A DNA stretch of 64,000 nt. It comes from Acidobacteriota bacterium. Its GTDB lineage: Bacteria; Acidobacteriota; UBA6911; RPQK01; JAJDTT01. Positions within the stretch are counted from its first letter, which is position 1; each line of letters begins with the position of its first letter. The stretch spans positions 738,322 to 802,321 of the forward strand of contig OY764083.1 in assembly GCA_963668095.1 (NCBI GenBank). Direction: 5' to 3'. Made by a program: the position numbers and the translations under genes. The notes beneath the pieces are model-generated. The model searched no databases. It was not told the origin of the DNA and saw only the letters and a list, made by a program, of their open reading frames with translations. This document shows positions 12,368 through 46,570 of the stretch, in pieces.

Positions 12368-13078
12368 CTACGATACTCTCTTGTCCAGGGCCCGGCGGGC
12401 CAATCGGGTCACTTGGATGGTCACGGCCAACGCCGCCAGAAAGCCGACAACATAGAAGATCGATTCCTCCGGCGTCCGGGTTCGTCCCGGCTCTCCCAGC
12501 GTCGCAAGATCGCCCGCCAGGGAACCGATGTATACATAAAGTATCGTCCCGGGAAGCATGCCCAGCCAAGACGCCAGCACGTAATGCCGAACCTTGACCT
12601 GAGTGATTCCAAACGCGTAGTTGAGCAGATTGAAGGGGAACACCGGCGAGAGCCGGGTCAATCCCACAATCTTCCATCCCTCCCGGGCCACGGCTTCATC
12701 CACCGCCGCGAAACGGGGATATGCCCGCATCTTCTCGGCCACCCAATCGCGGGCCAGGTGGCGTCCGATCAGGAAGGAGGCCGTCGCTCCCAATGTCGAC
12801 GAAGCGGAGACCAAAACCGTCCCCCAGCCGAGCCCGAAGACGAATCCCGCTCCAAGAGTGAGGATGAAACCGGGCAGAAAAAGGACCGTCGCCGCCACGT
12901 AGACCAGGAGAAAGGCCACCGGTCCCCAGGGACCCAACTCGGAAACGGTATGCAGAACCTGCCTGAGAAACGGTCCGATATCGTTGCGGATCACCAGAAG
13001 CCCGGCGATGACCAACGCGGCCAGCAGCAATTTCCACCACTGTTTTCGTTTCCCCGGCGACGAGTCGTGTTGAGCCAT
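12368..13078 (-). CDS. DedA / TVP38-TMEM64 family membrane protein
   Basis: Real start at ATG 13078 (MAQHDSSPGKRKQWWKLLLAALVIAG...), which overlaps the upstream gene stop by ATGA. Multiple TM helices and the characteristic LSPVFPFNLLNYAFGIT DedA motif. The track N-terminus (12369..13591) is spurious. Confidence 0.75.
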   Translation of the reverse strand: MAQHDSSPGKRKQWWKLLLAALVIAGLLVIRNDIGPFLRQVLHTVSELGPWGPVAFLLVYVAATVLFLPGFILTLGAGFVFGLGWGTVLVSASSTLGATASFLIGRHLARDWVAEKMRAYPRFAAVDEAVAREGWKIVGLTRLSPVFPFNLLNYAFGITQVKVRHYVLASWLGMLPGTILYVYIGSLAGDLATLGEPGRTRTPEESIFYVVGFLAALAVTIQVTRLARRALDKRVS

Positions 13079-31398: not shown

Positions 31399-32541
31399 TC
31401 AATCAATCGACACCCACTCCAGATCCTGGGCGGAACGGAGAACCGCTTCCTGGGTTTTCTGGGTGGCCAGCGCCTCCCGGAAGCTGGGGTGAGTCCCCTC
31501 TCCCGATTCCAATCCCTTCAAGAAATCGGCCAAGGCGTTGATGAAGGTGTGCTCGTAGCCGATCACGCATCCCGGAACCCACCAGTTTTTCATGTAGGGG
31601 TGTTCGGAAGCCGTCACCAGGATGGTGCGCCAACCCTGGAGGTGGGACGGGTCGTCGTGATTGAAGTACTGGAGCTGGTGCATGTTCTCCAGGTCAAAGT
31701 AGATCGACCCATTCTCCCCGTTGATCTCGAACGAGTTCTTGTTCTTGCGTCCGCGAGCGTAACGGGTAGCTTCGAAGGTCCCGTTGGACCCGTTGGCAAA
31801 GCGGGCCATGAAGGTGCAGACATCGTCGATCTCCACGGCCTTCCGCTCCGTCCGGCTTCCCTGCACCGGGCGCTCCTTGACGAAGATCTCCGTCATTCCG
31901 GAGACCGATTCGATGGAACCGTTGAGCCAGATCGCGGTGTCGATGCTGTGGCTCGCCAGATCTCCCGAGACGCCGGCCCCGGCGACTTCCTTCTCCAGGC
32001 GCCAGAGCGTGGGACCACCCAGCGGGACGTCCGCCGAAATGGTCCAGTCCTGTAGGTAGGTGGACCGGTAGTGGAAAATCCGGCCCAAGCGGCCCTCGTC
32101 GATCATCTGCCGGGCCAAGCTGATGGCCGGAACCCGGCGATAGTTGAACCAGACCATGTTGGCGACCCCCGCCGCCTCCACGGCCTCCGCCATCTCCACG
32201 GCCTCCGCCACATCGATGGCCAGCGGTTTCTCGCACAGAACCATCTTTCCCCGGCTCGCGGCGGCCAGGGCGATCTCATGGTGGGTGTTGTTGGGACTGC
32301 AGATGTCGATGACGTCGATGTCGTCCCGATCCACCAGGCGCCGCCAGTCCGTCTCCGTCGATTCCCAGCCCCAATTGCGGGCGAACGGCTCCAACTTGTC
32401 CGAGTTCCGGGCCGCCACCGCCTTGAGAACCGGGGCATGGGCCAGATCGAAAAACTGGCTGACCTTTCGGTAAGCGTTGGAGTGGGCTCGACCCATGAAG
32501 CCGTAGCCGATCATTCCTACGTTCAAAGTCTTTCTTGCCAT
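31399..32541 (-). CDS. Gfo/Idh/MocA-family oxidoreductase (inositol 2-dehydrogenase-like)
   Basis: 380 aa, ATG verified at 32541. [24 protein letters not shown] Rossmann motif. MVLCEKPLA catalytic EKP motif. Confidence 0.8.
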
Positions 32542-32741
32542 GAAATGTCTCCGGATCTGCCGAGGCCGGCTCGCTCATCCCACCGACTTGACGAGCCGAT
32601 GTCCTCAATCTGTGATGTAGAGAGAGTACGCCCGCACCGATCCAGGCCGCAAGCCCGTGGCGGGTGGCGGCACGGCTACGACGGGTGGGATAATCGGAAC
32701 GGATAATCGGGACTGTCACCAGCATGGGAGGTGTCGCGGAC

Positions 32742-33581
32742 ATGCGTGTGGGATTGAATCTGCTCCTCTGGACCACCGAAGTCGGACCGTCCCACCGGAA
32801 CCTGCTTAGACAGATCCGCGACTGGGGATTCGATGGCGTCGAGATCCCTATTTTTTCGCCCCATCCGGGTCGAGCCCGGGACCTGGGCCTGCTTCTGGAC
32901 GATCTCGGACTGGAGCGCACCGCCGTCACCGTAGTCCCGCCAGAGGCCAATCCCATTCACCCTGATCCGTCCGTCCGGACCAAGGCCCAGGAGTACTTGA
33001 AAGCCGTGGTGGAAGCCTGCCATCTGGCCGGGATCCGCCTCCTTGCAGGCCCGATGCACTCTCCTGTCGGTCTTTTGGCGGGCCGGAGCCGGACCCGGGA
33101 GGAATGGAGTTGGGCTCTGGAAATACTGCAACAGACGGCGGACCTGGCCCGATCCGCCCGGATCACGCTGGCGCTGGAATTCCTGAACCGGTTCGAGTCC
33201 TATTTTCTGAACTGCGCCGAAGACACCGTCGAGTTCACGTCTCAGGCCGATCGTCCCAACCTGGGAATTCTCTACGACACCTACCACGCCCATCTGGAGG
33301 AAAAAAACGTCCGCGCGGCGATTCACACCTGTGCGGGCGCCCTTCGCCACGTCCACATCAGCGAGAACGACCGAGCGACCCCCGGCGAGGGTCAGGTCCG
33401 CTGGCAGGAGACCTTCGACACTCTCAAGGACGTTGGATATGCGGACTGGCTGGTCATCGAGGCCTTCGGACAGACAATGCCTGAGTTGGCCGCCGCCACC
33501 TGCATCTGGCGCCGCATGTTCCCATCAGAGGAGCACCTGGCACGGAACGGACTGGATTGGATCCGCTCCAACTGGGAGTGA
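32742..33581 (+). CDS. sugar phosphate isomerase/epimerase (xylose-isomerase-like TIM barrel)
   Basis: ATG 32742 with GGAGG about 10 nt upstream (an alternative ATG at 32724). MRVGLNLLLW...FDGVEIPIF...ALEFLNRFESYFLN...HVHISEND typical of AP-endonuclease-2/xylose-isomerase-like TIM barrels. Confidence 0.75.
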   Translation: MRVGLNLLLWTTEVGPSHRNLLRQIRDWGFDGVEIPIFSPHPGRARDLGLLLDDLGLERTAVTVVPPEANPIHPDPSVRTKAQEYLKAVVEACHLAGIRLLAGPMHSPVGLLAGRSRTREEWSWALEILQQTADLARSARITLALEFLNRFESYFLNCAEDTVEFTSQADRPNLGILYDTYHAHLEEKNVRAAIHTCAGALRHVHISENDRATPGEGQVRWQETFDTLKDVGYADWLVIEAFGQTMPELAAATCIWRRMFPSEEHLARNGLDWIRSNWE

Positions 33582-33624
33582 CTTCCGTCTGAAAAACGTT
33601 GGAATACCCCTCCGAAAAAGGCGT

Positions 33625-33745
33625 CCCCCAAAAAGGGACAGTCTGTTTTTCCGTGTGTTTTTCCGTGGGCCGCCCGGCCTACGCGTAGCGCGGGAAAAAA
33701 GGCGCGTAGCGCGGGAAAAAAGGGGACAGTCGTTTTTTCCGCAGA
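33625..33745. repeat. intergenic repeat cluster: two A/T-stem hairpins with GGGACAGTC loops flanking a 2x21-bp tandem (cgcgtagcgcgggaaaaaagg)
   Basis: Seen directly: ccaaaaaGGGACAGTCtgtttttcc (about 33630-33653), tandem cgcgtagcgcgggaaaaaagg x2 (about 33682-33723), then ggaaaaaaGGGGACAGTCgttttttcc (about 33715-33742). Confidence 0.7.
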
Positions 33746-34289
33746 CCTATTTTGCGACCTGCCCCGGATGTCCCAAGATTGTCGGGTGCCACTAAGGGAG
33801 AAGGTGGTCTGGCTCCACCTGCGCAGGAGATATTTTGAGCGACATTGGAGAAGATTCGAAAACAGGATTCCCGGAAAACTCTTCGGGATCTGGACTGAGT
33901 CTCCAATCCAGGCTTCTCATTTTGGTGCTCTGCCTGATTGTGGGAACAGTAGTCCTGCCGGGGAGACGAAACTATCTACGGAACCGCGACCATCGCAATT
34001 TCGGCTTGTAGGAGTCGCCGGCGCCTCGGGGCTTCCCGGAGGCCCAAGTTGGTATGAACCAAGCCGAAATCAGCCGCCTCGAGTTCTCGGCGGATTTCGG
34101 TCTGATCCGCGAAAATTGGATCGCCGTAGACGGTCTCTGGCGGCCTGAAACGAAGGGACGAAAGGTAAAGCATAGGCCCCTGAACGGTGGCCAGGCTCCC
34201 TGTGCGGAGGCGCACGTGTCAGGGAATTCCGTCCGGGTCACATCCTCGGCGCGAACCTCCGCCACTCTTCCTCCCGAAGAATCCGAAGA

Positions 34290-34726
34290 ATCGAGAAAAA
34301 TAGACTGTCCCCTTTTTCTGTCCCGGGTTGTCGGCAGCATTCCCACGACCGAAATATATCTGCATCCGGAGAAGCTCTGGACCGTCACGCTGGCAGATTG
34401 ACCGGGTGCAATCACGGGTGGGTCCCCGAGACCGAGGGCCACGCCAGCATCGTAAACTTCCATCATGCCCATTGCCGCCTCCATCGGCGGCGCGGGATTC
34501 CCTCCTCCGCGAGCGTAGCCAATTCCATGCTTGCGGGCTGGCCGACCGAGAATAGGGAGGTGGACGAGTCGTGGACCACAACCAATGGAGGAGTGATCAA
34601 CTGTCCCCGGGTCAGGTTGTGAATCGTAACTTCGTAGGTGGCCTGAGTCAGGCTGGAGGTGCCGGACGCCAAACCGAATAGCGCCGTAACCCAAACCAAG
34701 ACAATTGATCTTAGCATTCTTCTCAT
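34290..34726 (-). pseudogene. spondin_N-like secreted protein gene, frameshifted and interrupted (pseudogene)
   Basis: Frame A from ATG 34726 reads MRRMLRSIVLVWVTALFGLASGTSSLTQATYEVTIHNLTRGQLITPPLVVVHDSSTSLFSVGQPASMELATLAEEG, then hits a stop 11 codons later. The domain continues in a different frame from about 34498 (NPAPPMEAAMGMMEVYDAGVALGLGDPPVIAPGQSASVTVQSFSGCRYISVVGMLPTTRD) and runs into the hairpin repeat at about 34294-34319. The low-GC 5' end is conspicuous. Confidence 0.5.
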
Positions 34727-34821
34727 TCGACTCTCCTTTCCAATTATTGCGGATTACATACGAGAATTCAGGGCTGGTGCGCACTCGAACACCCAAAGCA
34801 ACGATTCAGAAAGGGACAGTC

Positions 34822-34905
34822 TCGATCCCCGGAACGCGATCCCCGGAACGGAACGGGAACGGAACGGAACGCGATCCCCGGAACGGAACGGGAACGGAAC
34901 GGAAC
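34822..34905. repeat. tandem repeat: 35-bp unit (cgatccccggaacggaacgggaacggaacggaacg) x2 plus partial copy, itself built of GGAACG hexamers; immediately preceded by a GGGACAGTC core
   Basis: Seen directly at about 34812-34912. Confidence 0.8.
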
Positions 34906-35086
34906 GCCTTATAAGACTAGAGCATCCCGCCCGGCATCAGAGCAGTGGACCTTTGGCAAATGGAAGCACGTCCGGCGGACCTTCCGCATATTGGGAGGAC
35001 AATTCAGTCTATTGGACGAGACACGTGCTCTGGGTCGTTCGGTGCCGCGGGGGCAGAATCGACGGACGGACGGAGATCAGGCGAGT

Positions 35087-36022
35087 CTACGGGACGAAGG
35101 CGTGCGAGCGTTGCTCCCGCAGGGAAAACATCACTCCGCCCAGTTGGGGGATGGGGTGTCGGCGACGTCGATATCGACCTTGCTTTCGATACGTCTCCAG
35201 CAGCTGCGCCACCTTCTCTGCCGGCCCGACGGCCAATCCGTCCGTCAGAAACCGCAGACGCCGGCGAAAGGCTCCGGCACAGGTAAATCCACGGCGCTCC
35301 TCCTGATCGAGGATCCACTGGGGGATCGCCGCCTGGTTCTCCCGGGTGGGGACAGCTCCTCGATAGTACAACCGGGACCGGTAACTGCTGTACACGTCCG
35401 TTCCGGGATCCGAGGGGAACAGCTCCTCCAGCGGAATCAGGCTTTGATTCTCGCCGGTGAGTCTCCAGCGGGCCGAGCCCCACTTCCATTGCTCGGGCCG
35501 CTTGACCAGTCCGGCCCGGACGGCGTTGAGTTCCACGTATAGAATCGCGTCTTGGACCGCTTCGGTTCCCAAGAGTTCCGGGTTCTTGAAACGTTCACTC
35601 CAAAAATGCCCTCGCCGTCGAAACTGGCGGTTGTACCACCGGGCATACTGCCCGTCCACGTTCTGCATTAGTTTCGAAACGTCAAAGAGACGCTGGTTGA
35701 ACGCCTCCCACTCGACGACGGTCCAATCGGCGGTTGTCTTCTCTGCCTTTTGCCCATAAAGCTTGTGGGCGATGTCCTCCAACTCCTCGCGGGACAAGGA
35801 GCGAGGCTTCTCAAAATGGACGACGAAGTGGAAGTGATTGCCCATGATCTGAAATGCGGCCAGACGACACCGGTAGACACTGACGTAGAACAACATCAGG
35901 TTCAGGAGTTTGCGACGGGCTTCGTGGTCTTCAAAGGGGAACCAATCGGTCCAGCCGGTGACTCGATTGGTGAGGTGATAGAAGGCGGCTTCTGAACTCT
36001 TGTGTCGCGCGGTTCGGGGCAT
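35087..36022 (-). CDS. REP-associated tyrosine transposase / IS200-like Y1 HuH transposase (TnpA_REP, long form)
   Basis: 311 aa from ATG 36022 (track start 36028 GTG). HuH motif IMGNHFHFVVHF. Conserved YARWYNRQFRRRGHFWSERFKNPEL block. Catalytic-Tyr block AILYVELNAVRAGLVKRPEQWKWGS. N-terminal AAFYHLTNRV. This matches the RAYT/PF01797 pattern. Confidence 0.7.
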   Translation of the reverse strand: MPRTARHKSSEAAFYHLTNRVTGWTDWFPFEDHEARRKLLNLMLFYVSVYRCRLAAFQIMGNHFHFVVHFEKPRSLSREELEDIAHKLYGQKAEKTTADWTVVEWEAFNQRLFDVSKLMQNVDGQYARWYNRQFRRRGHFWSERFKNPELLGTEAVQDAILYVELNAVRAGLVKRPEQWKWGSARWRLTGENQSLIPLEELFPSDPGTDVYSSYRSRLYYRGAVPTRENQAAIPQWILDQEERRGFTCAGAFRRRLRFLTDGLAVGPAEKVAQLLETYRKQGRYRRRRHPIPQLGGVMFSLREQRSHAFVP

Positions 36023-36243
36023 GAGCACGGTCTTCGGTGAATCGGACTCGCGAGGGAGTCGGTTCGCACCTCTGATGACAACAACGACTCAGAACCAAGA
36101 AAGGCGAAGGAACCTCACGAAAACCAGCACACCTCCCGTCTCTGAATGAAACCGAAGAAACGAGAAAAATAGACTGTCCCCTCTTTTCTGGGCGCGGAAT
36201 TCGACCTGGACGCCCTCCACTCCCATCTCCACCCGGATTCCGC

Positions 36244-37002
36244 TTAACCGTCCCGAAAACGATCGGCCGTGTCCTGTGGCTCGTATCCCAGGTCCCTCCG
36301 GGCGTTGTCCAGTGACCGGTAGTTCCACTTGTTGTCGGAGACCACGTAGTAGATCCCGAACTTCAGATCCTCAGGCGCATCGATACAGCGGCGGATCATC
36401 TGGGCGATGTCCGCGTGACTGCACCAGACCGAAAAATCCCGAACCTCGTTGGGCCGGTCGTTCCAATGAACCCGGCCGATACGGAGGCAGATCATGGACA
36501 GGCCCCACTGATCAGAGAAGAAGCGGCCCAATGTTTCGCCGAACGCCTTGCTGCAACCGTAGAGGCCGTTGGAGCGAATCAGAGACGTGTCCAGCAAGTC
36601 CCAGCCGGCCACTTCTTCGTAACGTCCCTCGACCAGGGCATCGTAGGGCGGATGCCGTTCCCACTCACTGACGGCGGCTCCGCTACTGGCGAAAATGACC
36701 CTCTCGACCCCCGCCGTCCGGGCCGCCTCGAACACGTTGTAGGTTCCGATGATATTGTGCGGGAGGATGTCCTCCCAGGTGGGGTCCCCCTGAGCCATGG
36801 CGGCCAGGTGGACGACGGTCTCCACTCCCTCGAATGCCGGCCGGATGGTCTCCAAATCGGCAATGTCCGCCTGCAGGCACGGAAGGCCTTCCACCGGGCG
36901 CCGGTTCAAGGCGCTCAGCTCGTACGCATCTCCCAGTTCCCGCCGGCAAATCTGCCCGATGAGTCCGCTCATGCCCGTGATCAATACTCTTTTCTTGGCC
37001 AT
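36244..37002 (-). CDS. NAD-dependent epimerase/dehydratase-family protein (extended SDR)
   Basis: 252 aa, ATG verified at 37002. MAKKRVLITGMSGLIGQ Rossmann motif. YGCSK catalytic YxxxK. Confidence 0.75.
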   Translation of the reverse strand: MAKKRVLITGMSGLIGQICRRELGDAYELSALNRRPVEGLPCLQADIADLETIRPAFEGVETVVHLAAMAQGDPTWEDILPHNIIGTYNVFEAARTAGVERVIFASSGAAVSEWERHPPYDALVEGRYEEVAGWDLLDTSLIRSNGLYGCSKAFGETLGRFFSDQWGLSMICLRIGRVHWNDRPNEVRDFSVWCSHADIAQMIRRCIDAPEDLKFGIYYVVSDNKWNYRSLDNARRDLGYEPQDTADRFRDG

Positions 37003-37140
37003 GCGGTGATTCTACCGCAGCTCCTCCCGACTCCGCCTGCCGGGTCTTACCGCCGGTTTTCTTTCCCACTTCCAGCCCCTATGATGGGCTCTCGTCTCGA
37101 CACCCAATTGAATCAGCATCCGACGAACGGGAGCGGCAAC

Positions 37141-37875
37141 ATGTTTCGGAACAAGATCCTCGAGAGAATCAAAAGAGGTGAGAAGGCTCTGGGCCTGTTC
37201 ATGTCGGACCCTTCCGAAGAACTGGTGGAAATGGCCGGGCGTATGGGGCTGGATTTCGTCGGCTTCGACGGTCAGCACTCGCCCCTCGCTCCAGAACGGG
37301 TCGGCACCCTTTGCACCATCGCGGACGGATTCGACGTCACTCCCACAATGCGGGTACCCGATGGGAACGAGAGCACGCTCCTGTCCTACCTGGACCGGGG
37401 AATTCGCAGTATCACCGTGCCCAATATCCAAACCCGGGAAGAAGCCGAAAAACTGGTCAAATACACCTATTTCGCACCTCTGGGTCTGCGCAGTTCCACC
37501 AGCTACCGCATGGTCATGAACCAGGAGGGGAAAGACCGCAACACCCTCTTCCAGGAAGTCAACGCCAACCTGATGATCGTTCCCCAATTAGAGAGCGTGA
37601 CTTCAATCCAGAACTTGGACGAGATCCTTCAGGTGGAGGGGATCGACTATTTGGGAGGCGGCCCCGAAGACATGGCCCAGTCCATGGGAATTCCGGGCCG
37701 GCACGACGATCCGAGGGTGACCCGGATCTACAAGGAGATGGAGCAGAAGGTGCATGCCGCCGGAAAGTTCATGGCGGGAGACTACATCGAGTCGGTGAAC
37801 GTCTTCTGGAACGTCAAGGGCGCATTGGAGCAACTGCTTGAAAGCCACGGCCGCCGATCTCTCATGACCTGGTAG
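37141..37875 (+). CDS. HpcH/HpaI-family 2-keto-3-deoxy-acid aldolase
   Basis: ATG 37141 (MFRNKILERIKRGEKALGLFMSDPSEELVEMAGRMGLDFVGFDGQHSP...). The track ORF 36415..37875 has a spurious N-terminus. Family-typical beta-alpha barrel blocks (MIVPQLESV..., GPEDMAQSMGIPG). Confidence 0.75.
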   Translation: MFRNKILERIKRGEKALGLFMSDPSEELVEMAGRMGLDFVGFDGQHSPLAPERVGTLCTIADGFDVTPTMRVPDGNESTLLSYLDRGIRSITVPNIQTREEAEKLVKYTYFAPLGLRSSTSYRMVMNQEGKDRNTLFQEVNANLMIVPQLESVTSIQNLDEILQVEGIDYLGGGPEDMAQSMGIPGRHDDPRVTRIYKEMEQKVHAAGKFMAGDYIESVNVFWNVKGALEQLLESHGRRSLMTW

Positions 37876-37891
37876 TAAAGACCACCATCCC

Positions 37892-38845
37892 GTGAAATAC
37901 ATCGTCAATCTGCCCATCGCCGGCCCCTTGGCGGCTCCCCGCAGCCTTTCGACTCTGGCTCGGGCCGCAGAGGCCCAGGGAGTCGACGTCATCTCCGCCA
38001 GCGAGCGCCTGGTCCTGCCCCGATCCGTCGAGACCCGCTACCCGTACGGCGCCACGGGCAAGTTTCCCGGCGGAACCGCCAGCCAGAAAAGCCTTGAGAT
38101 GCTGATGACCTTGGCCTTTCTCTGCGGCCAGACGTCCCGGGTCCGCATCCTGACCTCGGTGCTGGTTCTGCCCTACCGGGACCCGATCCTGGCGGCCAAG
38201 ATGCTGGCCACCCTGGACGTCCTCTCCCAGGGCCGGCTCATCGTGGGTTGCGGCGTCGGCTGGATGCGGGAGGAGTTCGAAGCCCTGGGCTTGCCGGTCC
38301 GATTCGAGGACCGGGGCCGAGCCTCGGACGAGTACCTGAGGGGCATGCAGGAACTCTGGTGTAGCGAGAACCCTGAGTTTAAAGGCAACCATGTTCGATT
38401 TTCCGGGATCGAATTCCATCCTCAGCCGGTGCAGCGTCCTCATCCGTCCTTCTGGTTCGGCGGAGAGAGCACTGCGGCCCTCCGGCGCGTCGCCCGCTTC
38501 GGGGACGGATGGATGCCCATTGCCGGAAATCCCCGGCATCCACTCGACCACGACCGGCAACTCGCCCGGGCGATTGAAAGACTGCACCGCATGGTGGAGG
38601 CGAAAGGCCGGGATCCGGACAAGATCCACGTTCGTTTCGGCGGAGGGTGGAACGAATCCCCGCGCCGGAGCCCGGGAGGAAAGAGACTGCCCATGAGCGG
38701 CACTGTCCAGCAGGTGGCCGGAGACATCCGCCGCTATCAGGATATGGGAGTCGACCACATGGGAGTGGGTCTGCTGACCGACGATCTGTCCGAGAGCCTG
38801 GAACGGATCGAGCGCTTCATGACGAGTGTCGCGCCCTCGGTCTAG
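37892..38845 (+). CDS. LLM-class (luciferase-like) flavin/F420-dependent oxidoreductase
   Basis: 317 aa, apparent GTG start. GRLIVGCGVGWMREEFEALG and FWFGGES blocks typical of the luciferase-like monooxygenase family. Confidence 0.7.
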   Translation: MKYIVNLPIAGPLAAPRSLSTLARAAEAQGVDVISASERLVLPRSVETRYPYGATGKFPGGTASQKSLEMLMTLAFLCGQTSRVRILTSVLVLPYRDPILAAKMLATLDVLSQGRLIVGCGVGWMREEFEALGLPVRFEDRGRASDEYLRGMQELWCSENPEFKGNHVRFSGIEFHPQPVQRPHPSFWFGGESTAALRRVARFGDGWMPIAGNPRHPLDHDRQLARAIERLHRMVEAKGRDPDKIHVRFGGGWNESPRRSPGGKRLPMSGTVQQVAGDIRRYQDMGVDHMGVGLLTDDLSESLERIERFMTSVAPSV

Positions 38846-38858
38846 AAATCTGCGCGAT

Positions 38859-40091
38859 TCACACTCTCAGGAAGATTCTCTGCCGATACATCCACCAGCA
38901 GACCAGCCAGAACGTGAGCCCCACCATCATCGACTCGAGGGCAGGCTCATTGGCGGCTCCCCAGAGCTGGAAGATGCTCTGCCCCAGGTGTGTCCGCAAG
39001 GTTGCTGCGGTCCAGTTGGGTAGAAGCATGCTCATCGCGTAGATCGCTATGGAGTTGGTTCCCACCACCACCAGAGGGAAGGTCCAGCGACGGATCCCGG
39101 CCACGTCAATTAGGACGTAGAGTCCTCCCAGGATCAGGCAGCACCAAGCCGTCGAAAAGATGGCCCAGGAGGGTGTCCAGATCCGCTTTATGAGTGGACA
39201 GACACCCGTCCAATCGAGGAACAGTCCAACGGCCAGACCAAGAACCCCCGCTGCCAGAAGTGTTCTGAGCTTGGTTTGGACCGAGCGGTGCGAACGCAGG
39301 AACCCGCCGACCATCAGGCCGAAAAGCATGGTGGCCAGGGAGGGAATGAAATTGATGGTCGCATACCCTCCACCGTTGTAGACGAACGGCTCCTGGCGTG
39401 GCAGCTGGTTCAGCAGCCAGCCGTCAATGGCATGACCGACGTTGGCGTTTTTATGCCAGGCTGGAGACACTTCCGCCAGATATTGCTGAGCCCACTCCGG
39501 TTGAACACCCACCTCAGGCGAGCCGCTCGGAAGCTCGACACCGGCTCCGGGATACAGGACGTACAACATCCAGGTCAGGATCAGGACGAATACTGCCCCA
39601 AGGGACTGACTTCGAAGTCTTCGACGCCAGAACAAAAAGAGGAAAGTGTAGCCCAGCCCGATCTGCGTCAGGACATTCATTAGTGACCAACTGGTGCTGG
39701 AGAGCGAATCGGAAATCAGGAAGATGCCCAGAAGAATGAGGATGGCGGATCTCCAGAGGGCGTGGCGCAGCATCTTGCCGTACGAGTGCCCATGTCCAGA
39801 TCGTTTCGCATAGGAGTAGGCCATCGACACTCCCACCATAAACATGAAGGAGGGTTGGATCAGATCCCAGTAGCCGAATCCGGTCCAGGGGACGTGGGAA
39901 AACTGATAATGAACCGTCTGCCAGAAGGAAGAGTCCGGGTTTGTTGCCAGATGATTCTTGGCCGTCTCCCTGAGACCGAAACCCTTGAAGGCGAGGGAGA
40001 CCATGATCAGTCCACGATAGGCGTCAAGAGACAGCAACCTCTGTTGCTGCCAATAGCTTCTTGCGACCTCGGATTCACTGTGGGATCCCAC
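38859..40091 (-). CDS. DUF1624/DUF5009 (heparan-alpha-glucosaminide N-acetyltransferase-like) integral membrane acyltransferase-family protein
   Basis: About 410 aa with about 10 TM helices. The hallmark N-terminal QRLLSLDAYRGLIMV is typical of HGSNAT-like proteins. The start codon is non-ATG in the track and the coordinate is uncertain by 1 nt. Confidence 0.6.
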   Translation of the reverse strand: MGSHSESEVARSYWQQQRLLSLDAYRGLIMVSLAFKGFGLRETAKNHLATNPDSSFWQTVHYQFSHVPWTGFGYWDLIQPSFMFMVGVSMAYSYAKRSGHGHSYGKMLRHALWRSAILILLGIFLISDSLSSTSWSLMNVLTQIGLGYTFLFLFWRRRLRSQSLGAVFVLILTWMLYVLYPGAGVELPSGSPEVGVQPEWAQQYLAEVSPAWHKNANVGHAIDGWLLNQLPRQEPFVYNGGGYATINFIPSLATMLFGLMVGGFLRSHRSVQTKLRTLLAAGVLGLAVGLFLDWTGVCPLIKRIWTPSWAIFSTAWCCLILGGLYVLIDVAGIRRWTFPLVVVGTNSIAIYAMSMLLPNWTAATLRTHLGQSIFQLWGAANEPALESMMVGLTFWLVCWWMYRQRIFLRV

Positions 40092-40230
40092 GAACGCCCC
40101 TCCGTAGAGTCGATATCAAATTTACGATGATCAGCATGCTGGCACCGTTCGCATGGTGATTCAACTGACCGTAGATGGCCTTTCTGCTGCGATAGGCTGC
40201 CGCTGAACGGCACGGCCCAGCAGAGGGCCG

Positions 40231-40391
40231 AAGGGGAAAAGGGTGACTGTCCCCTGCTCGGGAAAAAGGTGACGAAGGGGAAAAGGGTGACTGTCCCCTG
40301 CTCGGGAAAAAGGTGACGGGAAAAAGGTGACTGTCCCCTTCTCGCGACGGACGCGCGGGACCTTCTCGCGACGGACGGACGGACGCGCGGA
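40231..40391. repeat. BIME-like tandem cluster: 44-bp unit (gaaggggaaaagggtgactgtcccctgctcgggaaaaaggtgac) x2 plus a partial third copy, followed by ctcgcgacggacg repeats
   Basis: Seen directly. The unit carries the GACTGTCCCC core (reverse orientation of GGGGACAGTC) three times. Confidence 0.8.
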
Positions 40392-40427
40392 GGGAAATTA
40401 GGAGCGGTTGATGGCCGGACCGACGTT

Positions 40428-40928
40428 TTGCCCTCGAGGGGATCGGTTCACGACGAGACGAATGTTGATTTGAGTGCTCCTTTCGCGGTCGGCTGGGCGC
40501 GGGCAACCTGCTCGAGGCGGGTGAAGGCCAGCATTCTGTTTCGCCATCGCAACAGCGAAGGAGAACAGCGAAGGAGTACCCACAGGAGAAGCGGAGTCAA
40601 CGCGGCGACCGTACCGTCAACCCGGTTTGTCACCTTTGCCGAACAGGGAGAAGGTAAGTTTGGAACCGGAGTTGCCAATGCCAATCCTTCCGCCAAATCA
40701 GCTCACGTCACCTTTACTGCCAAGAACGCCGCGGGGCGATTACTGGCCAGCGTCGACAGGACACTGTTGCCTGGAGGCCATGACGCGCAGGGCATGTCGT
40801 CGCTGTTCGGTGCCACCAGCTTTACCGGATCGCTCGAAGTCACCTCTTCAGTGCCCATCGTCAGTCTTTCCATTAATATCGAAGCTGATCCCGTATTCTC
40901 CTCTTTGCCTCCTGGGGAAATTGAATAG
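40428..40928 (+). CDS. possible 5'-truncated or remnant gene for a secreted beta-rich protein
   Basis: The ORF starts right after the repeat cluster with a non-ATG codon. Only the C-terminal about 110 aa (…VTFTAKNAAGRLLASVDRTLLPGGHDAQGMSSLFGATSFTGSLEVTSSVPIVSLSINIEADPVF) look protein-like, with lower GC. May be a fragment. Confidence 0.25.
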   Translation: MPSRGSVHDETNVDLSAPFAVGWARATCSRRVKASILFRHRNSEGEQRRSTHRRSGVNAATVPSTRFVTFAEQGEGKFGTGVANANPSAKSAHVTFTAKNAAGRLLASVDRTLLPGGHDAQGMSSLFGATSFTGSLEVTSSVPIVSLSINIEADPVFSSLPPGEIE

Positions 40929-40971
40929 AAGCTGGAGTCCCATCCGGATTTTGGAGGAACTACAAAGTGAA

Positions 40972-42192
40972 TCAGACCGATGCGACCGTTTCCCGCCGGC
41001 AGATTCCGGCCAGGAGCCCCATCCCCTCCCGAATGACCGCGGGCGGATCGTAACCGAAGCAGAGCCTGGCGCAATTGTGCCCCGAGTTACCCTCGGGTGA
41101 CAGGCGCACCCCGGGGAAGATGATAATGCCCTGGCGAAGTGCCTGGTCGGCAACCGCCTGCATGTCGACTCCAGGAGCCAAAGTCAGCCAGATGAACAGG
41201 CCGCCCCGCGGACGGCTCCAAGTAGCCCCGAAGTCCGACGGCTCTCCGAACCCCGCCTCCAGTCCCTCCAGCATGGCGTCCCGCTTGCGGCGCAGAATGC
41301 CGTTGGCGGACCGGATGTGCTCTTCCAGGTGGCTCTCGGCATAGCGATGGACGGCCAACGCTCCCAACTGGCTCACTCCCCCTCCGCTCTTGATGGCCGA
41401 GATCCGGTCCAGGAGCGGTGACGGTCCGGCCAGGTAGCCGAGGCGGACTCCCGGCCCGATGATCTTGGAGAAGGATCCGACATAGACGACCACGCCCTCG
41501 TTATCTAGGGCGGCAATGGCCGGGACCGGCTCCCCCTCAAAACGAAGGTCCACGTAGCAATCGTCCTCCAGGATGGCGATCCCGTGCCGTTGGGCCGTCT
41601 CCAACAGGTGCTGCCGGCGCTCCAGGCTCATGACCCATCCCAGAGGATTCTGGAAAGTCGGAATCGTGTAGATGAGCTTGACTCGTTTCCCCTCGCCGGA
41701 CGCGCTTCGAATCGCCCCTTCCAGGGCATTGGGCAGGAATCCTTCCTGGTCGCAGGCCACCCCCCGGATATCCGCACCGAATCGTCTCAGGATTCCCAGA
41801 GTCCCCGGATAGGTGAACTCTTCGGTCAGGACCACCTCGCCCGGGTTCATCAGAGCCTCGATGACCATGTGATTGGGCTGACTGGAGCCATCCCCCAGAA
41901 TGACGTCCTCCGACGAGACGGAAATACTTCGGTCCCGCGCCAATTTCTCAGCGATGTACTCCCGCAGGGGCGGATACCCCGAGGGATGAGGGTATTTGGC
42001 CAGTCCCCGCCCTTCCTCTTTCAGACCCACCCGGAGAGCTTCAGCCAACTCCGCCAACGGCAGTGAGTCGGGATCGGGATAGGCCACGCCGAAGTCATAG
42101 GGTGCGCCCGGATGGGCCTGCCGCGGCCCCGCCTGTCGCGGTATCGAGCGGGAATAAACGTCCTCTTGGGCGAACAAGCTCCGTTTCGGCAT
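40972..42192 (-). CDS. PLP-dependent aminotransferase (class I/II fold, 2-aminoadipate/aromatic aminotransferase-like)
   Basis: 406 aa from ATG 42192 (MPKRSLFAQEDVYSRS...). PLP-lysine context YVGSFSKIIGPGVRLGYL. The track ORF (to 43929) has a long spurious N-terminus antisense to the SBP gene. Confidence 0.8.
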   Translation of the reverse strand: MPKRSLFAQEDVYSRSIPRQAGPRQAHPGAPYDFGVAYPDPDSLPLAELAEALRVGLKEEGRGLAKYPHPSGYPPLREYIAEKLARDRSISVSSEDVILGDGSSQPNHMVIEALMNPGEVVLTEEFTYPGTLGILRRFGADIRGVACDQEGFLPNALEGAIRSASGEGKRVKLIYTIPTFQNPLGWVMSLERRQHLLETAQRHGIAILEDDCYVDLRFEGEPVPAIAALDNEGVVVYVGSFSKIIGPGVRLGYLAGPSPLLDRISAIKSGGGVSQLGALAVHRYAESHLEEHIRSANGILRRKRDAMLEGLEAGFGEPSDFGATWSRPRGGLFIWLTLAPGVDMQAVADQALRQGIIIFPGVRLSPEGNSGHNCARLCFGYDPPAVIREGMGLLAGICRRETVASV

Positions 42193-42282
42193 GGTTGGAT
42201 CCTCCCGGCGCCCGATCCGAATCCGCTTGCGGCGTCCGACCGGCTCTGCCATTCTGCCAGAACATCGACGATCGCCGATGAA

Positions 42283-44301
42283 ATGTCCAGCAGAATGTCG
42301 ACATTCCTCCCAGCCCTCATGGCCTTTGCATCCCTTGGCTGCCAACCGGATCTCGCCTCTGACGCTCCTGTTTCCTCGCCCTATCTGATCTACGAAGAGA
42401 CCCCGCAAGGGGCCGAGATCGTCCTCGACCCCGAGCGCCGGCCCCGCCGGTTCCAGGAGTCCCCGATGCTGGCCCGCCTGGTGGCCCGGGGGAAGCTCCC
42501 ACCGGTGGAAGAACGGCTTCCGGAGAATCCGTTGGTCCTCCATCCCACCGAGTCCATCGGCCGGTACGGAGGGACCTTGAAATCCGGCATGATCGCCAAG
42601 GGTCTCAACGAAGAGATGAACCGGATCATGGGAATGGAGAAATTCCTCTTCTACGACGCAACCGGAACCCGGGTCGTCCCCAGCGTGGCCGAAGACTGGC
42701 GCCAGAGCGAGGATGGCCGCCGGCTCCGAATTCAACTGCGGCGAGGCATGCGCTGGTCCGACGGCCACCCCTTCACCGCGGAGGACGTGCGCTTCTATTG
42801 GGAAGATATCCACGCCCACCCGGACGTATTTCCCTACCCCGATCCGGACCTGACGGTCAACGGCAAAACGATGCAGTTCCAGGTCCTGGACCCACACACG
42901 GTGCTCTTCCGATTCGACGATCCCCATCACCGGCTCGTGGAGATCGTGGCCTCCGCCTTCAGCCGGTTCGCCGGAAGCGTCTTCGGAGAGTTCCTCTGGG
43001 GACCGTACGCACCGGCGCATTATCTCAAGCAGTTCCATCCGGGCTACGTGTCCCCGGAGGATCTCAATCTCAGAGTGGGGGAATCCCAGCAGGAAGACTG
43101 GGTCGGCCTGATGAAGCTCCGGAACAACTACGCTCTGAACCCCGAGCTGCCGGTCCTGATGCCCTGGAGGACCGTGCAGGCGCGGGACACGGCCGTATGG
43201 GTCCTGGAGCGGAACCCTTATTTCTGGGAGGTGGACACCGAGGGCAATCAACTCCCTTACATCGACCGCTGGATCCTGACCAAGGCCACGGACCGCGAAG
43301 TCGTCAACCTGCGGGCCATTGCCGGCGAATACGACTTCCAGTACCGGTATCTGGACCTCAAGAACCTGCCCGTCTTTCTGGAGCATGCCGGGGAGGAGAA
43401 CTACAACGTCTATCTCAACCCCTCCCTGTCGGGGATGCTCTTCGGCTGCTATTTCAATCTGGCATGGGAGGGAGACCCCGAGGTCTCCAGATTGATTCGC
43501 GATGCGAACTTCCGCCGCGCGCTCTCCCTGGGCCTCCGCCGGACTCAGTTCAGTGACGCCTTTTACTTCTCGTTGGCCAGACCCGGCGCGGCCGGACCGT
43601 TTCCGACACACCCGGAGCATCCAGGGGAGAGCTATCGGACCCGCTGGTCCACCTACGATCCGGACCAGGCCAATGCCCTGCTGGACGATCTCGGACTCCA
43701 CGAGCGGGACGACGAAGGATACCGGATGCGAAGCGACGGACGCGGCCGGCTTCGAATCCGGATTCCCGCTCCGTCCGACCGCATTGAGATCCCCAAGTTC
43801 CAGATGTTGGAACAACAAATCGAAGAGCTGGGAATCGCCGTCGACCTTCCCATCCTGGGACGAACCCTCTGGTGGGAGGAGATGCGGGCCAACCGCGCCC
43901 AGATCACCTGCTGGGCGAACCCGACCCAATCCGTCTGGGGCAGCCAGCCAATGTATGTCCTTCCCGTCAGCCGATTATCTCCCATCGGTCCCTTGTTCGG
44001 GCTCTGGTTTTCCAGTAACGGAAGACTGGGAAAGATGCCCACCGATCCGAAGATCCTCCGGGCCCTGGAACTCTATCGGCTCGGCCGAACCCGGACGGCT
44101 TCGGAAAGGGCCCGGATCGGCCGGGAGATCTGGTCGATCGCCATCCATGAGCAGTGGATGATGAGCACCGTGGGGCGGGCGCCCACTCTGGTGCGGATCT
44201 CCGACCGGCGGCTGGGCAACATCCCGGCAGGGCTCTGCACCCAGGACAATTGCCGCGCTCCTTCCACAGGTCGTTTGGAGACCCTGTATTGGAAGGAGTA
44301 G
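42283..44301 (+). CDS. ABC transporter substrate-binding protein, family 5 (oligopeptide/dipeptide/nickel type), lipoprotein
   Basis: Start ATG 42283 (MSSRMSTFLPALMAFASLGCQPD, lipobox LGC). About 670 aa. Family-5 SBP blocks (LVLHPTESIGRYGGTLK, WSDGHPFTAEDV). Confidence 0.8.
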   Translation: MSSRMSTFLPALMAFASLGCQPDLASDAPVSSPYLIYEETPQGAEIVLDPERRPRRFQESPMLARLVARGKLPPVEERLPENPLVLHPTESIGRYGGTLKSGMIAKGLNEEMNRIMGMEKFLFYDATGTRVVPSVAEDWRQSEDGRRLRIQLRRGMRWSDGHPFTAEDVRFYWEDIHAHPDVFPYPDPDLTVNGKTMQFQVLDPHTVLFRFDDPHHRLVEIVASAFSRFAGSVFGEFLWGPYAPAHYLKQFHPGYVSPEDLNLRVGESQQEDWVGLMKLRNNYALNPELPVLMPWRTVQARDTAVWVLERNPYFWEVDTEGNQLPYIDRWILTKATDREVVNLRAIAGEYDFQYRYLDLKNLPVFLEHAGEENYNVYLNPSLSGMLFGCYFNLAWEGDPEVSRLIRDANFRRALSLGLRRTQFSDAFYFSLARPGAAGPFPTHPEHPGESYRTRWSTYDPDQANALLDDLGLHERDDEGYRMRSDGRGRLRIRIPAPSDRIEIPKFQMLEQQIEELGIAVDLPILGRTLWWEEMRANRAQITCWANPTQSVWGSQPMYVLPVSRLSPIGPLFGLWFSSNGRLGKMPTDPKILRALELYRLGRTRTASERARIGREIWSIAIHEQWMMSTVGRAPTLVRISDRRLGNIPAGLCTQDNCRAPSTGRLETLYWKE

Positions 44302-44370
44302 ACTCTGCCGTGGGACAACACCGATCCTCTGCAGACCACCGTCCGGCGTGACGGCACGCGAAAACCGATC

Positions 44371-45363
44371 ATGGTTGCCTATCTGCGCCGCCGCCTGCTC
44401 CAAGCGACCCTGACGATCTGGGCCATCAGCATCGTTTCGTTCGTTCTCATCGAGCTGCCACCGGGGGACTTCGTCACCGCCTACGTGGACCGGCGCGCCT
44501 CCCAGGGCATTCCCCTGCCGGCGGAGGAGATCCAGATCCTGAGAGTCCGTTATGGCTTGGACCAACCCGCAGCCCAGCGCTATCTGATCTGGATGGGTCG
44601 GTTGCTCCGCGGTGACCTCGGCGTCTCCTGGATTCGCGGGCAGCCGGTTTCGGAGATCATCTCCGATCGCCTCTGGTTGACCATGGCCGTATCTCTGGCC
44701 GCCATTCTGCTCACCTGGGCGGTGGCTCTGCCGGTGGGTGTCTACTCGGCCATTCGCCAATATTCGGCGGGAGACTATCTGTTCACACTCCTCTGCTTCG
44801 CCGGTGTCGGCGTCCCCAACTTCCTGCTCGGCCTCCTCGTCATGTACCTGGGATTCGTCTGGTTCGATGCGGATGTCGGCGGGCTCCTCTCATCCCAGTA
44901 CGTGGACGCCCCCTGGAACGCCGCCAAGCTTTGGGACCTGATCAAGCATCTTCCCCTACCGGCCCTGGTGCTGGGCCTGGGCGGAACGGCCTACATGATT
45001 CGGATCCTCCGTGCCAATCTGCTGGATGAACTGTCCAAACCGTACGTTCTCACCGCCAGGGCCAAGGGGCTCTCGGAGATCCGGCTCCTTCTCAAGTACC
45101 CCCTGCGCGTGGCCCTGAACCCGTTCGTCAGCACCGCCGGCTATCTGCTTCCCTATCTGGTCTCGGGCAGCGTCATCGTCTCCATGGTCATGAGCCTTCC
45201 CACCGTGGCGCCAGTGTTATTGTCGGCCCTCATGGACCAGGATCTTTACCTGGCCGGCACCCTGGTGCTCCTGCTGGGCGTGCTTACCGTGGTGGGAACG
45301 CTGATTTCGGATCTGCTTCTGCTCTGGATCGATCCCAGGATCCGGTTCCGGGGACAGTCATGA
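44371..45363 (+). CDS. ABC transporter permease (DppB/OppB-type)
   Basis: 330 aa, 6 TM helices, binding-protein-dependent permease signature region. Its last about 8 codons lie in the tandem repeat at 45340-45363. Confidence 0.85.
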   Translation: MVAYLRRRLLQATLTIWAISIVSFVLIELPPGDFVTAYVDRRASQGIPLPAEEIQILRVRYGLDQPAAQRYLIWMGRLLRGDLGVSWIRGQPVSEIISDRLWLTMAVSLAAILLTWAVALPVGVYSAIRQYSAGDYLFTLLCFAGVGVPNFLLGLLVMYLGFVWFDADVGGLLSSQYVDAPWNAAKLWDLIKHLPLPALVLGLGGTAYMIRILRANLLDELSKPYVLTARAKGLSEIRLLLKYPLRVALNPFVSTAGYLLPYLVSGSVIVSMVMSLPTVAPVLLSALMDQDLYLAGTLVLLLGVLTVVGTLISDLLLLWIDPRIRFRGQS

Positions 45364-45455
45364 ATCCAGAGCCACGGTCTTGGGGACAGTCATGAATCCG
45401 CCGGTTTTGGGGTCAGTCACGTGAATCCGCCGGTTTTGGGGACAGTCACGAATCC
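45340..45455. repeat. four tandem about 30-bp units (gaatcc-N-ggttttGGGGACAGTCAyg) spanning the permease-1 stop and the permease-2 start
   Basis: Seen directly: ccggttccggggacagtcatga / atccagagccacggtcttggggacagtcatg / aatccgccggttttggggtcagtcacgtg / aatccgccggttttggggacagtcacg. Confidence 0.8.
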
Positions 45456-46560
45456 GGAGCCGGAGGAGATTGAATTCCAGTTCGAAACGGCGTCCTCCTG
45501 GCAACTGACCTGGAGGCGCTTCCGCCGGCACAAGCTGGCTCTCGTCTCCCTGATCCTCCTGGGATTCCTTTACCTGGTGGTTCTGCTGGCCGATTTACTT
45601 GCCACCGCCGACCCCACCCGAATCGATGCCAGCCGAGCCTACCTGCCTCCCCAACCCATCCACCTGCGGGACGACAGCGGATTCAATCCGCATGTCCACC
45701 CGGTCTCCGGGGATTGGGACCACCGCATTTTTCGACGAGTCCATCACATCGATCCGCGTCGGAGGCTCCCGGTCCGCCCGCTGGCCAGAGGCTACGAATA
45801 CGAGTTTCTGGGTCTGATTCCGACCGATCTGCACCTAATCGGGGTTGAGGGTGAGACCCAGGCCCTATCGCTGCTGGGTACGGACGGGCTGGGACGCGAC
45901 CTCTTCTCCCGCCTGATCCACGGCACCCGGACCTCGCTCACCATCGGTCTGGCGGGAGTCATCCTGAGCCTGGTTCTGGGCGTCGTGCTGGGCGGAATCT
46001 CCGGGTTCTACGGAGGCGCGGTCGACACCGTGATCCAGCGAGTCATCGAGATCCTTCTCTCCATTCCCACCATTCCCCTGTGGCTGGGCCTGGCCGCCGC
46101 CATGCCCCGGGACTGGGGAGTGCTCCGCGTCTATTTTATCCTCACGGTCATCCTGTCCCTCATCGGCTGGACCCGCCTGGGCCGGGAGGTCCGCGGCCGT
46201 TTCCTGGTGCTCAGGCAGGAGGACTACGTCCTGGCCGCCGAACTGATGGGCGCCAGCCGGGCCTCCGTCATCCGGCGCCACATGGTGCCCGCTATCACCA
46301 GTCACGTCATCGCCACCGCGACCCTCGCCCTGCCGGCGATGATCATCGCCGAAACCTCCCTCAGCTTTCTGGGACTCGGTCTGCGTCCGCCGGCCATCAG
46401 CTGGGGAATCCTGCTGCAAGGGGCCCAGCAGGTGCAGGTCCTGGCGCTGAGGCCCTGGTTGTTGGCTCCTGCAGTGCCGGTCATCGTGTCCATTCTGGCC
46501 TTCAATTTCGTGGGAGACGGCCTGCGTGACGCCGCGGACCCCTATGCCAGGAGAACTTGA
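45421..46560 (+). CDS. ABC transporter permease (DppC/OppC-type)
   Basis: 379 aa. The only in-frame start is GTG 45421, inside the 4th repeat unit. N-terminal WRRFRRHKLALVSLILLGFL typical of DppC. Permease signature ALAGEPRILIADEPTTALDV is not here; the EAA-like loop is present. Confidence 0.75.
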   Translation: MNPPVLGTVTNPEPEEIEFQFETASSWQLTWRRFRRHKLALVSLILLGFLYLVVLLADLLATADPTRIDASRAYLPPQPIHLRDDSGFNPHVHPVSGDWDHRIFRRVHHIDPRRRLPVRPLARGYEYEFLGLIPTDLHLIGVEGETQALSLLGTDGLGRDLFSRLIHGTRTSLTIGLAGVILSLVLGVVLGGISGFYGGAVDTVIQRVIEILLSIPTIPLWLGLAAAMPRDWGVLRVYFILTVILSLIGWTRLGREVRGRFLVLRQEDYVLAAELMGASRASVIRRHMVPAITSHVIATATLALPAMIIAETSLSFLGLGLRPPAISWGILLQGAQQVQVLALRPWLLAPAVPVIVSILAFNFVGDGLRDAADPYARRT

Positions 46561-46570
46561 AGCTCAACCC

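Follow-up and report, generated by a model that had tools for sequence, protein, structure and literature searches.

A dispersed short repeat and the RAYT-like transposase gene that it brackets in an Acidobacteriota genome

A 64,000-nucleotide stretch of an Acidobacteriota genome (contig OY764083.1, positions 738,322 to 802,321; hereafter the window) contains repeated copies of a short motif, GGGGACAGTC, together with a gene whose product resembles the tyrosine transposases associated with REPs (RAYTs). A preliminary description of the window had read the motif as repetitive extragenic palindromic (REP) elements mobilised in trans by a RAYT, which raises the question of what kind of repeat this is and how it is connected to the gene. 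We consider it likely that the copies are the cognate end-repeats of an element of the TIRYT type, in which a RAYT-like gene lies between terminal inverted repeats (TIRs), and that solo and arrayed derivatives of these ends occupy non-coding DNA. The repeat family is a relative of REP elements and not a classical hairpin REP.

The motif and the gene that it brackets

The exact 9-mer GGGACAGTC was present 11 times in the window when both strands were counted, at 33635, 33723, 34813, 45351, 45383 and 45439 on the plus strand and at 34303, 36172, 40245, 40289 and 40329 on the minus strand. In dinucleotide-preserving shuffles the mean was 1.31 and the maximum 4, and none of 100 shuffles reached 11. 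All of the exact copies were within 33.6-45.5 kb, with none in the remainder of the 64 kb. A fourth G was present in 8 of the 11 (GGGGACAG), the other three carried AGGGACAG, and no canonical 10-mer in the window was more frequent than GACTGTCCCC, which shared first place. The positions reported earlier were right to within 2 nt and the claimed excess over chance was confirmed. A variant core, GGGGTCAGTC, was present at 45409-45418. The variant GGTGACAGTC at 32711-32720 on the minus strand could not be claimed because one-mismatch 10-mers as a class were not above chance in the window (16 versus 9.5 expected). Against the gene map, the cores were intergenic with two exceptions, one overlapping the final 13 nt of a permease gene (45351) and one in the first codons of OppC (45439), so that the reported placement between genes or at gene ends held for all 11. 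These data indicated that the GGGGACAGTC motif is a true dispersed, extragenic and over-represented family.

The gene in question (35087..36022, minus strand) encodes a 311-residue RAYT-like Y1/HUH tyrosine transposase of probable TIRYT type. It matched Pfam Y1_Tnp with 31.5 bits at full length (gathering cutoff 23) and 33.8 bits over the N-terminal 186 residues. The HuH motif is N62-H63-F64-H65 (NHFH), and about 97 residues separate it from the putative catalytic Tyr162 within YVELNAVRAGLV, where the Y motif reads YVELNA, that is, Y---NA and not Y---NP. An hhalign comparison placed W141 and Y162 on W94 and Y115 of E. coli RayT. The sole NCBIfam match was REP_Tyr_transpos (NF047646; E=4e-13), at 49.4 bits and under its equivalog cutoff of 80. 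The C-terminal 126 residues had no Pfam match even at E<=10 and no helix-turn-helix (HTH) or DnaA_C match, and a profile of the family had no match among PDB sequences at E<=1. An AlphaFold2 model built from a 16-sequence alignment had a pLDDT of 50. Searches identified 644 homologues at E<=1e-5, with numerous paralogues in individual genomes; JGI gives homologues the name RayT. A profile search of 1.84 billion representatives gave 183 clusters at E<=1e-30 and a scan of GTDB representative genomes gave 79 loci.

The gene in the window is bracketed by inward-facing cores. Its left (upstream) end repeat is at 36164..36190 on the minus strand, with the core GGGGACAGTC at 36172-36181 and a left-end sequence of the type AGAAAAGAGGGGACAGTC TATTTTTCTCG. 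The right (downstream) end repeat, inverted relative to the left, is at 34808..34830 on the plus strand, with the core AGGGACAGTC at 34812-34821 and a right-end sequence of the type GAAAGGGACAGTCTCGATCC. The same arrangement was found among 55 close loci from at least nine genomes, 44 of which had cores on both sides and seven more an upstream core alone. The upstream core was in the sense of the gene at 51 of the 55 loci (median 205 nt before the ATG, range 113-350) and the downstream core was inverted at 44 (median 235 nt after the stop codon); in distant homologues the cores were at -77 to -260 upstream and +200 to +240 downstream. The exact inverted repeat was short, with a median of 10 nt and a maximum of 26, whereas conservation covered about 22 nt. 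The left and right ends were distinct subtypes that both contain RAARGGGACAGTCT, the left being AGAAGGGGACAGTCTGTTTTTCC and the right, read inward, CGGAAAGGGACAGTCTCGATTCC. Homology between the DNA of paralogues extended through both untranslated regions and decayed near the flanking cores. The preliminary description had one family member flanking the RAYT gene; the flanking was real, but there are two copies and they are inverted.

Homologues at 44-56% identity were likewise flanked by inward-facing RGGGACA, with different next bases. GGGACA was followed by GTC in the close clade that includes the window, by GACTG in CBDCUP and CBDCLS (homologues of 52-53% identity), by GAGT in CAWGNQ and CAVRSV, and by CTG[CT] in CAVQPK and JAADFK (all of these with homologues of 45-47% identity). 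The flanking variant was also the commonest distal form, distal meaning more than 700 nt from the genes, in most of the genomes with enough distal counts. As exceptions, in CAVRSV the flanking variant tied with GAC, and in two genomes of the close group, CATOST and OZ253580, GTC was not among the top distal forms; JAADFK had too few distal copies for the comparison. This variation of the suffix with the enzyme lineage argues against an unrelated host binding site, and by analogy the flanking-distal co-variation is the same type of evidence as links REPs to RAYTs.

All of the sampled related DNA was within 10 kb of a transposase gene. In this DNA the density of distal cores was 0.75/kb in predicted non-coding sequence versus 0.055/kb in coding sequence, as delimited by an ad hoc gene caller. 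The overall distal density, about 0.13/kb, extrapolates to several hundred copies per genome, a rough figure because none of the DNA was farther than 10 kb from a transposase gene. Cores (about 340) outnumbered gene copies (about 55) several-fold.

The gene itself was multi-copy in a clade of uncultured Acidobacteriota metagenome-assembled genomes; OZ246889.1 had 11 loci or more and CBDCJH01 nine or more. The paralogues were 72-94% identical and 45 of 46 full-length copies were intact 311-codon open reading frames (ORFs). Within-genome pairs had a median synonymous divergence (dS) of 0.25 and a ratio of non-synonymous to synonymous divergence (dN/dS) of 0.26, with the youngest pairs at dS 0.01-0.03. 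The intact copies, the low dN/dS and the few young pairs indicate that the copies persist under purifying selection and still duplicate.

Comparison with four relatives (L082-L085), whose flanking genes were 89-95% identical to those of the window, showed that one site had gained, lost or inverted the transposase segment. In L082 and L083 the position flanked by the epimerase and TIM-barrel genes (10786-12049 in L082) was occupied by a mandelate-racemase/muconate-lactonising-enzyme (MR_MLE) gene and one core, with no transposase; L084 had both MR_MLE and the transposase, and in the window (33590-36187) the transposase was in place of MR_MLE. Homology of the window to the RAYT-less locus of L082 and L083 stopped at 36188, 7 nt from the 36172 core. 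In L085 the transposase segment was inverted, and 83 nt of the epimerase 3' end were duplicated on its far side (12512-12594). Cores varied at other orthologous sites as well. L082 had two cores at the junction where the window has its 40.2-kb array, the permease/OppC junction of a further relative, L086 (3090-3260), held an array with different spacers and copy number, and gapped alignments revealed further presence/absence polymorphisms of cores and arrays.

Solo copies appeared to derive from the ends of the element. The solo left-end-type copy at 34279..34321 (minus strand, core 34303-34312) was 92% identical over 39 nt to the left end of the window's own transposase unit (36148-36186), and the dispersed copies therefore descend from element ends. 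Matches of this copy to the left ends of other such units did not go beyond 22-50 nt. An ordinary autonomous insertion sequence (IS) of the IS200/IS605 type, with the cores as solo ends or remnants resembling miniature inverted-repeat transposable elements, would fit this solo left end, the multi-copy gene with its few young pairs, and the varying presence, absence and orientation of the gene at one locus. We consider it improbable, however, that transposition and decay of such an IS produced the family. The typical paralogue pair is diverged and constrained and nearly all copies are intact; subterminal hairpins were not found, there was no tnpB among the genes neighbouring the transposase, and the ends are inverted rather than asymmetric. 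Cores exceed genes several-fold and form direct arrays spaced at 15-60 nt, arrays for which the decay of solo ends does not account. The data already suggest that most cores have no gene remnant beside them.

Some larger rearrangements were also observed near cores. The aminotransferase and acyltransferase genes, neighbours in the window, were separated in L082 by roughly 6 kb of additional small genes (680-6770), among them a HigB/HTH toxin-antitoxin pair, and same-orientation cores at 4214, 5680, 6693 and 6737 separated gene modules. The idea that cores act as cassette or recombination sites was rejected, as inter-genome alignments ended within 25 nt of cores in 6.8% of cases versus 9.8% for random non-coding positions. 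Segmental duplications of about 500-640 nt at L018 8450-9320 and L033 13150-13850 had repeated ends that carry core arrays.

Repeat anatomy, folding and orientation

An alignment of 340 copies from the window and the related loci was conserved from -5 to +16 around the 9-mer, about 22 nt in all, with the consensus A-R-A-A-R-GGGACAGTC-T-n-k-W-T-T-y-C (ARAAR-GGGACA-GTC-TnkWTTyC). Flanks outside this element were unrelated between sites, and the position matrix of the aligned copies contained no GT[AG]G foot.

When 323 distinct 41-nt copies were folded as single-stranded DNA, the mean minimum free energy was -3.82 kcal/mol versus -3.86 kcal/mol in flank-swapped controls, which were chimeras combining a copy's 5' flank with the 3' flank taken from a different copy. 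The copies were no more stable than these controls, and the core showed no preference for an enclosed loop. The AAAAA...TTTTT hairpins reported earlier were only partly recovered: A-run and T-run flanks do exist at four window copies (33635, 33723, 34303 and 36172), but the predicted single-stranded hairpins were weak (-2.8 to -7.6 kcal/mol), the best in the window being that of the 33723 copy, and carried no structural signature. The appearance of hairpins at these copies is due to the weak GAAA...TTTC complementarity of the element.

One copy did coincide with a terminator-like structure. The solo copy AAAAAGGGACAGTCTGTTTTTCCGTGTGTTTTTCCG (33629..33660, plus strand, core 33634-33643), whose 3' module is imperfectly duplicated and whose orthologous site also has a core in L082, L083 and L085, has the sole core in the region overlapping a terminator-like hairpin followed by a T run (33623-33640). 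This overlap, and the sense bias described below, would be expected if the repeat were a structured RNA or an intrinsic terminator co-transcribed with its neighbours. We regard that explanation as extremely unlikely, given that there was no Rfam match at E<=1, that terminator-like sites numbered 10 versus 11.4 in shuffles, that no copy-specific pairing was found, and that both orientations of the element occur with the transposase gene.

In the related loci the copies formed 166 clusters of 1 to 12 copies, with core-to-core spacings mostly of 15-60 nt (mode 25-30). Among the 77 multi-copy clusters, 71 had a single orientation and six were mixed, and no inverted doublets of the kind seen in REPINs or bacterial interspersed mosaic elements (BIMEs) were found. 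The window has two such direct arrays. The first (40229..40356, minus strand) contains three cores (40245, 40289 and 40329) with a 44-nt period. The second (45342..45461, plus strand) contains three exact cores (45350, 45382 and 45438) and the variant GGGGTCAGTC (45409), and reaches across the stop codon of the permease gene into the start of OppC. The tandem clustering reported earlier was therefore real, but its BIME-like character was not, as the arrays are direct and not alternating.

These findings bear on the REP/REPIN-RAYT reading, in which hairpin-forming palindromic REPs in inverted doublets or BIMEs are served in trans by a single-copy domesticated RAYT. Much of what would be expected was present: the family is extragenic, over-represented and clustered, inverted copies flank the gene, the motif co-varies with the enzyme, and the only NCBIfam match and the JGI naming both point to RayT. 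However, there is no GT[AG]G foot, the folding energy equals that of the controls, just six of 77 clusters are mixed, and the gene is found at least 11 times per genome, has a Y---NA motif and scores under the NCBIfam cutoff. Membership of a canonical REP/REPIN system was in this way already largely refuted, and we consider it unlikely. What stood of the preliminary reading is an extragenic family tied to a RAYT-like gene with inverted flanks at 44 of 55 loci; its hairpins and BIME-like arrangement did not, and the family has neither a GT[AG]G foot nor a single-copy transposase.

Distal clusters tended to follow the orientation of neighbouring genes (36 sense, 10 antisense), a signal that came mostly from clusters within called ORFs. 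This sense bias within called ORFs may be an artefact of the caller; the clean unidirectional intergenic cases were 12 versus 4. Copies were downstream of convergent genes as often as upstream. Relative to the sign of the GC skew, neither cluster orientation (27:19) nor gene orientation (16:20) showed a significant bias.

The sense tendency, the strongly intergenic location and the operon-internal array before OppC, whose position is conserved in L086, are features that a host regulatory site, nucleoid-protein site or promoter element could share, if the transposase inserted beside such sites or carried one as an operator. This alternative seems very unlikely to us. The 3' half of the motif changes with the transposase lineage, the copies show no preference for the upstream side of genes, array spacing is irregular, a promoter scan gave no sigma-70-like match at the cores, and target duplication would have left direct rather than inverted flanks. 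The protein-binding motif that had been offered as an alternative is compatible with these data solely if the binder is the transposase itself.

As a separate observation, the permease/OppC array, which sits between two permease genes, overlaps the predicted 5' end of OppC, and its repeated units hold ATG or GTG followed by AATCC. Judged from these units, the OppC N-terminus or translation start may vary between strains.

Tandem duplication at cores and a candidate nick site

The rate of short exact tandem duplication (period 7-45 nt, at least two copies) was 6.6/kb in DNA no more than 30 nt from a core, compared with 0.41/kb in the rest of the non-coding DNA and 0.10/kb in coding DNA. The cores are thus duplication hot spots, 16-fold over other non-coding DNA, and in the window four of seven tandem-repeat loci touch a core. 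On the 3' side the duplicated blocks began sharply at the G of GTC (15 runs, with at most nine at any other offset). There were 14 distinct 3'-side examples with different 13-19-nt units, all of the form GGGACA^[GTC...][GTC...], where the caret marks the boundary, and the window's 40329 copy is among them, with GGGACA^ followed by two adjoining copies of GTCACCTTTTTCCC. On the 5' side, 32 blocks had ragged ends: every one stopped within G0-G6, none ran past G6, and only two stopped outside G1-A5. An earlier comparison, in which GGGAC-only fragments were about 3-fold enriched near cores and suffix-only fragments were not, was superseded by this analysis of boundaries.

The footprints point to a recurrent nick, predicted at GGGACA^GTC. 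The proposed position falls where the half of the motif conserved throughout the family meets the half specific to each lineage. In the established chemistry of HUH tyrosine enzymes, a covalent bond forms with the 5' side of the nick and the 3'-OH is left free. Such an attachment would shield the GTC end and leave the GGGACA end open to trimming or re-extension.

Based on these observations, we propose that the transposase recognises the family-wide half, RAARGGGACA, and would nick single-stranded DNA directly 3' of it (GGGACA^GTC), the candidate substrate being either strand bearing RAARGGGACAGTC. Tyr162 would become covalently linked to the 5' end beginning GTC. Rejoining, re-insertion or template switching at the nick could then copy the adjacent 13-19-nt module locally, giving direct arrays with fast-changing spacers, and less often might seed new intergenic copies in trans or move or duplicate the gene itself.

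Several points weigh against our interpretation of the copies as the ends of a TIRYT-type element. The proposed nick site rests on duplication footprints, and replication slippage at a protein-bound site could yield the same pattern. The 5'-side boundaries are ragged, and the distant lineages gave one duplication starting right after GGGACA, in a junction test that was underpowered. The exact inverted repeat of about 10 nt is probably shorter than the "long TIRs" of TIRtrons. The densities depend on DNA close to transposase genes and on an ad hoc gene finder, and many copies are related by descent, so the counts are not independent. Finally, clusters have no strand bias relative to the GC skew, unlike IS608-type lagging-strand targeting.

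A more far-reaching speculation, which we hold to be unlikely, is that the system is maintained as a site-specific nick-and-copy device, acting on single-stranded DNA, that continually remodels intergenic regions and gene 5' ends. Numerous intact paralogues kept by purifying selection, and cores that act as precise duplication hot spots, could be read in this way. If it were true, regulatory or N-terminal variation would be generated in a programmed manner, for example at the permease/OppC array, which differs between close relatives, and the system would not be a selfish or merely domesticated transposon.

Relation to known systems and other features of the region

Di Nocera, De Gregorio and Rocco (2013, BMC Genomics 14:522, PMC3733652) reported RAYT-like genes with TIRs instead of REPs, which they named TIRYT/TIRtron. 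Many TIRYT TIRs share GGGGWSAS and lie at similar distances from the gene (PMC3733652; PMC6006769). Some form moderately abundant dispersed families as singles, dimers or groups, one case being the acidobacterium Koribacter versatilis (PMC3733652). Our literature search found no experimental work on TIRYT, and the motif itself was not found in this context.

The system described here is alike in having a RAYT-like Y1 gene between inverted repeats that are not REP hairpins, a roughly constant distance between repeat and gene, and repeats that are also dispersed as singles, pairs and groups; GGGGACAG matches GGGGWSAS exactly. It probably differs in its exact inverted repeat of about 10-14 nt, and it differs in having at least 11 diverged gene copies per genome, in direct arrays of up to 12 copies with hypervariable spacers, and in the duplication boundary GGGACA^GTC. 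Multi-copy genes, long direct arrays and a duplication boundary are not described in the text of PMC3733652.

Quentin, Siguier, Chandler and Fichant (2018, PMC6006769) equated TIRYT with TnpA-Y1 subclass 2.1. Their related subclass 2.3, reported mainly from Chromatiales and Alteromonadales, has a median length of 325 residues, is multi-copy with about 75% identity between copies, and contains extra sequence inserted between beta3 and alphaC. For both subclasses, 2.1 and 2.3, they reported that REP-like sequences were not found (PMC6006769). The present enzyme resembles both subclasses in its HuH motif (NH[YF]H, here NHFH) and Y motif (YIELNP/YVDLNP, here YVELNA). It resembles subclass 2.3 in being long with a C-terminal extension (here 311 residues), in its enlarged HuH-Y spacing (about 97 residues against a median of 110) and in being multi-copy, a likeness drawn from published motif, length, spacing and copy number (Table 1, PMC6006769) and not from the authors' hidden Markov models. 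It differs from both in its evident cognate family of dispersed repeats and in a C-terminal domain with no Pfam HTH or DnaA_C match.

With the REPtrons (E. coli RayT/TnpA-REP, Pseudomonas REPINs) the system shares a Y1/HUH enzyme whose own repeat, dispersed and extragenic, flanks it as inverted copies, a repeat variant for each enzyme lineage, and clustered copies, whereas it has no GTAG foot, stable palindrome or inverted doublets, its enzyme is multi-copy, and the conserved core is 10-22 nt. It shares the catalytic family with IS200/IS605 elements (IS608, ISDra2), which are single-strand "peel and paste" transposons, and the proposed GGGACA^GTC site parallels IS608, where a short sequence just 5' of cleavage marks the end and the target (TTAC^). 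We found none of the features peculiar to IS200/IS605 elements, namely asymmetric ends, subterminal hairpins, a Y---Q motif, an enzyme of about 150 residues, near-identical copies (about 99% within a genome for IS200; Table 1, PMC6006769), frequent tnpB and lagging-strand bias.

On sequence comparison the best label is a TIRYT/TIRtron-type system and not a hairpin REP/BIME family. The extreme gene copy number, the co-variation of enzyme and motif, the direct hypervariable arrays and the predicted cleavage site are new here. TIRYT-type RAYT-like enzymes (subclasses 2.1 and 2.3) are common. The acidobacterial clade is an unusually clear case, with dozens of intact genes bracketed by one short motif whose variable half tracks the enzyme. 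With duplication footprints pointing to a single phosphodiester bond, GGGACA^GTC, substrate and cleavage site could be tested inexpensively in vitro. The clade also lends itself to the question of whether RAYT-like genes present in many copies are selfish, domesticated or intermediate. The general picture of REP-like elements is unchanged by these findings.

Tandem repeats abut the right-end core at 34823..34907 (strand not assigned), comprising a 14-nt unit twice, a 35-nt unit 2.2 times and CGGAA runs. The solo copy GGAAAAAAGGGGACAGTCGTTTTTTCC (33715..33741, plus strand, core 33722-33731) is preceded by an exact duplication of a 21-nt unit ending in AAAAAAGG (33682-33723), which ends at the first G of the core. 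This copy and the solo left-end copy form a 23-nt, 91% complementary inverted repeat (33717-33739 and 34295-34317) that bounds a 600-nt segment (33717-34317). Within it is a 126-residue ORF (33768-34148) that had no Pfam match and no homologue in any fetched locus, and the interior (33740-34295) likewise had no homologue among the fetched loci. The segment may be a transposase-less, TIR-bounded element carrying cargo of no assigned function.

The gene map was drawn from Pfam scans and an ORF caller based on codon usage. It comprised a GFO/IDH oxidoreductase (31399-32541, minus), a xylose-isomerase-like TIM-barrel protein (32724-33581, plus), the Y1_Tnp protein (35087-36022, minus), an epimerase (36244-37002, minus), a luciferase-like oxidoreductase (37892-38845, plus), an acyltransferase-like protein (38859-40091, minus), an aminotransferase (40972-42087, minus) and a peptide ABC-transporter operon (42112-47692, plus). 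These two methods supported no gene in 33582-35086, and the ORF-based caller, which is ad hoc, puts 36244-37002 on the wrong strand. The GC skew was negative in almost all 2-kb bins of the window (cumulative -1.1), and the whole window is therefore probably on one replichore with the plus strand as the C-rich strand. ARAGORN called a tRNA-Val(gac) at 55641-55735 that, at 95 nt, is about 20 nt above the usual length and could reflect an insertion, an intron or a false call. At the junction of two ABC ATPase genes (47607-47672) there is a 20-nt tandem repeat (CCGAAAACGGACACTTTGTA, 2.8 copies) that contains GGACAC, recalling the GGGACAC(TG) core variant of other lineages.

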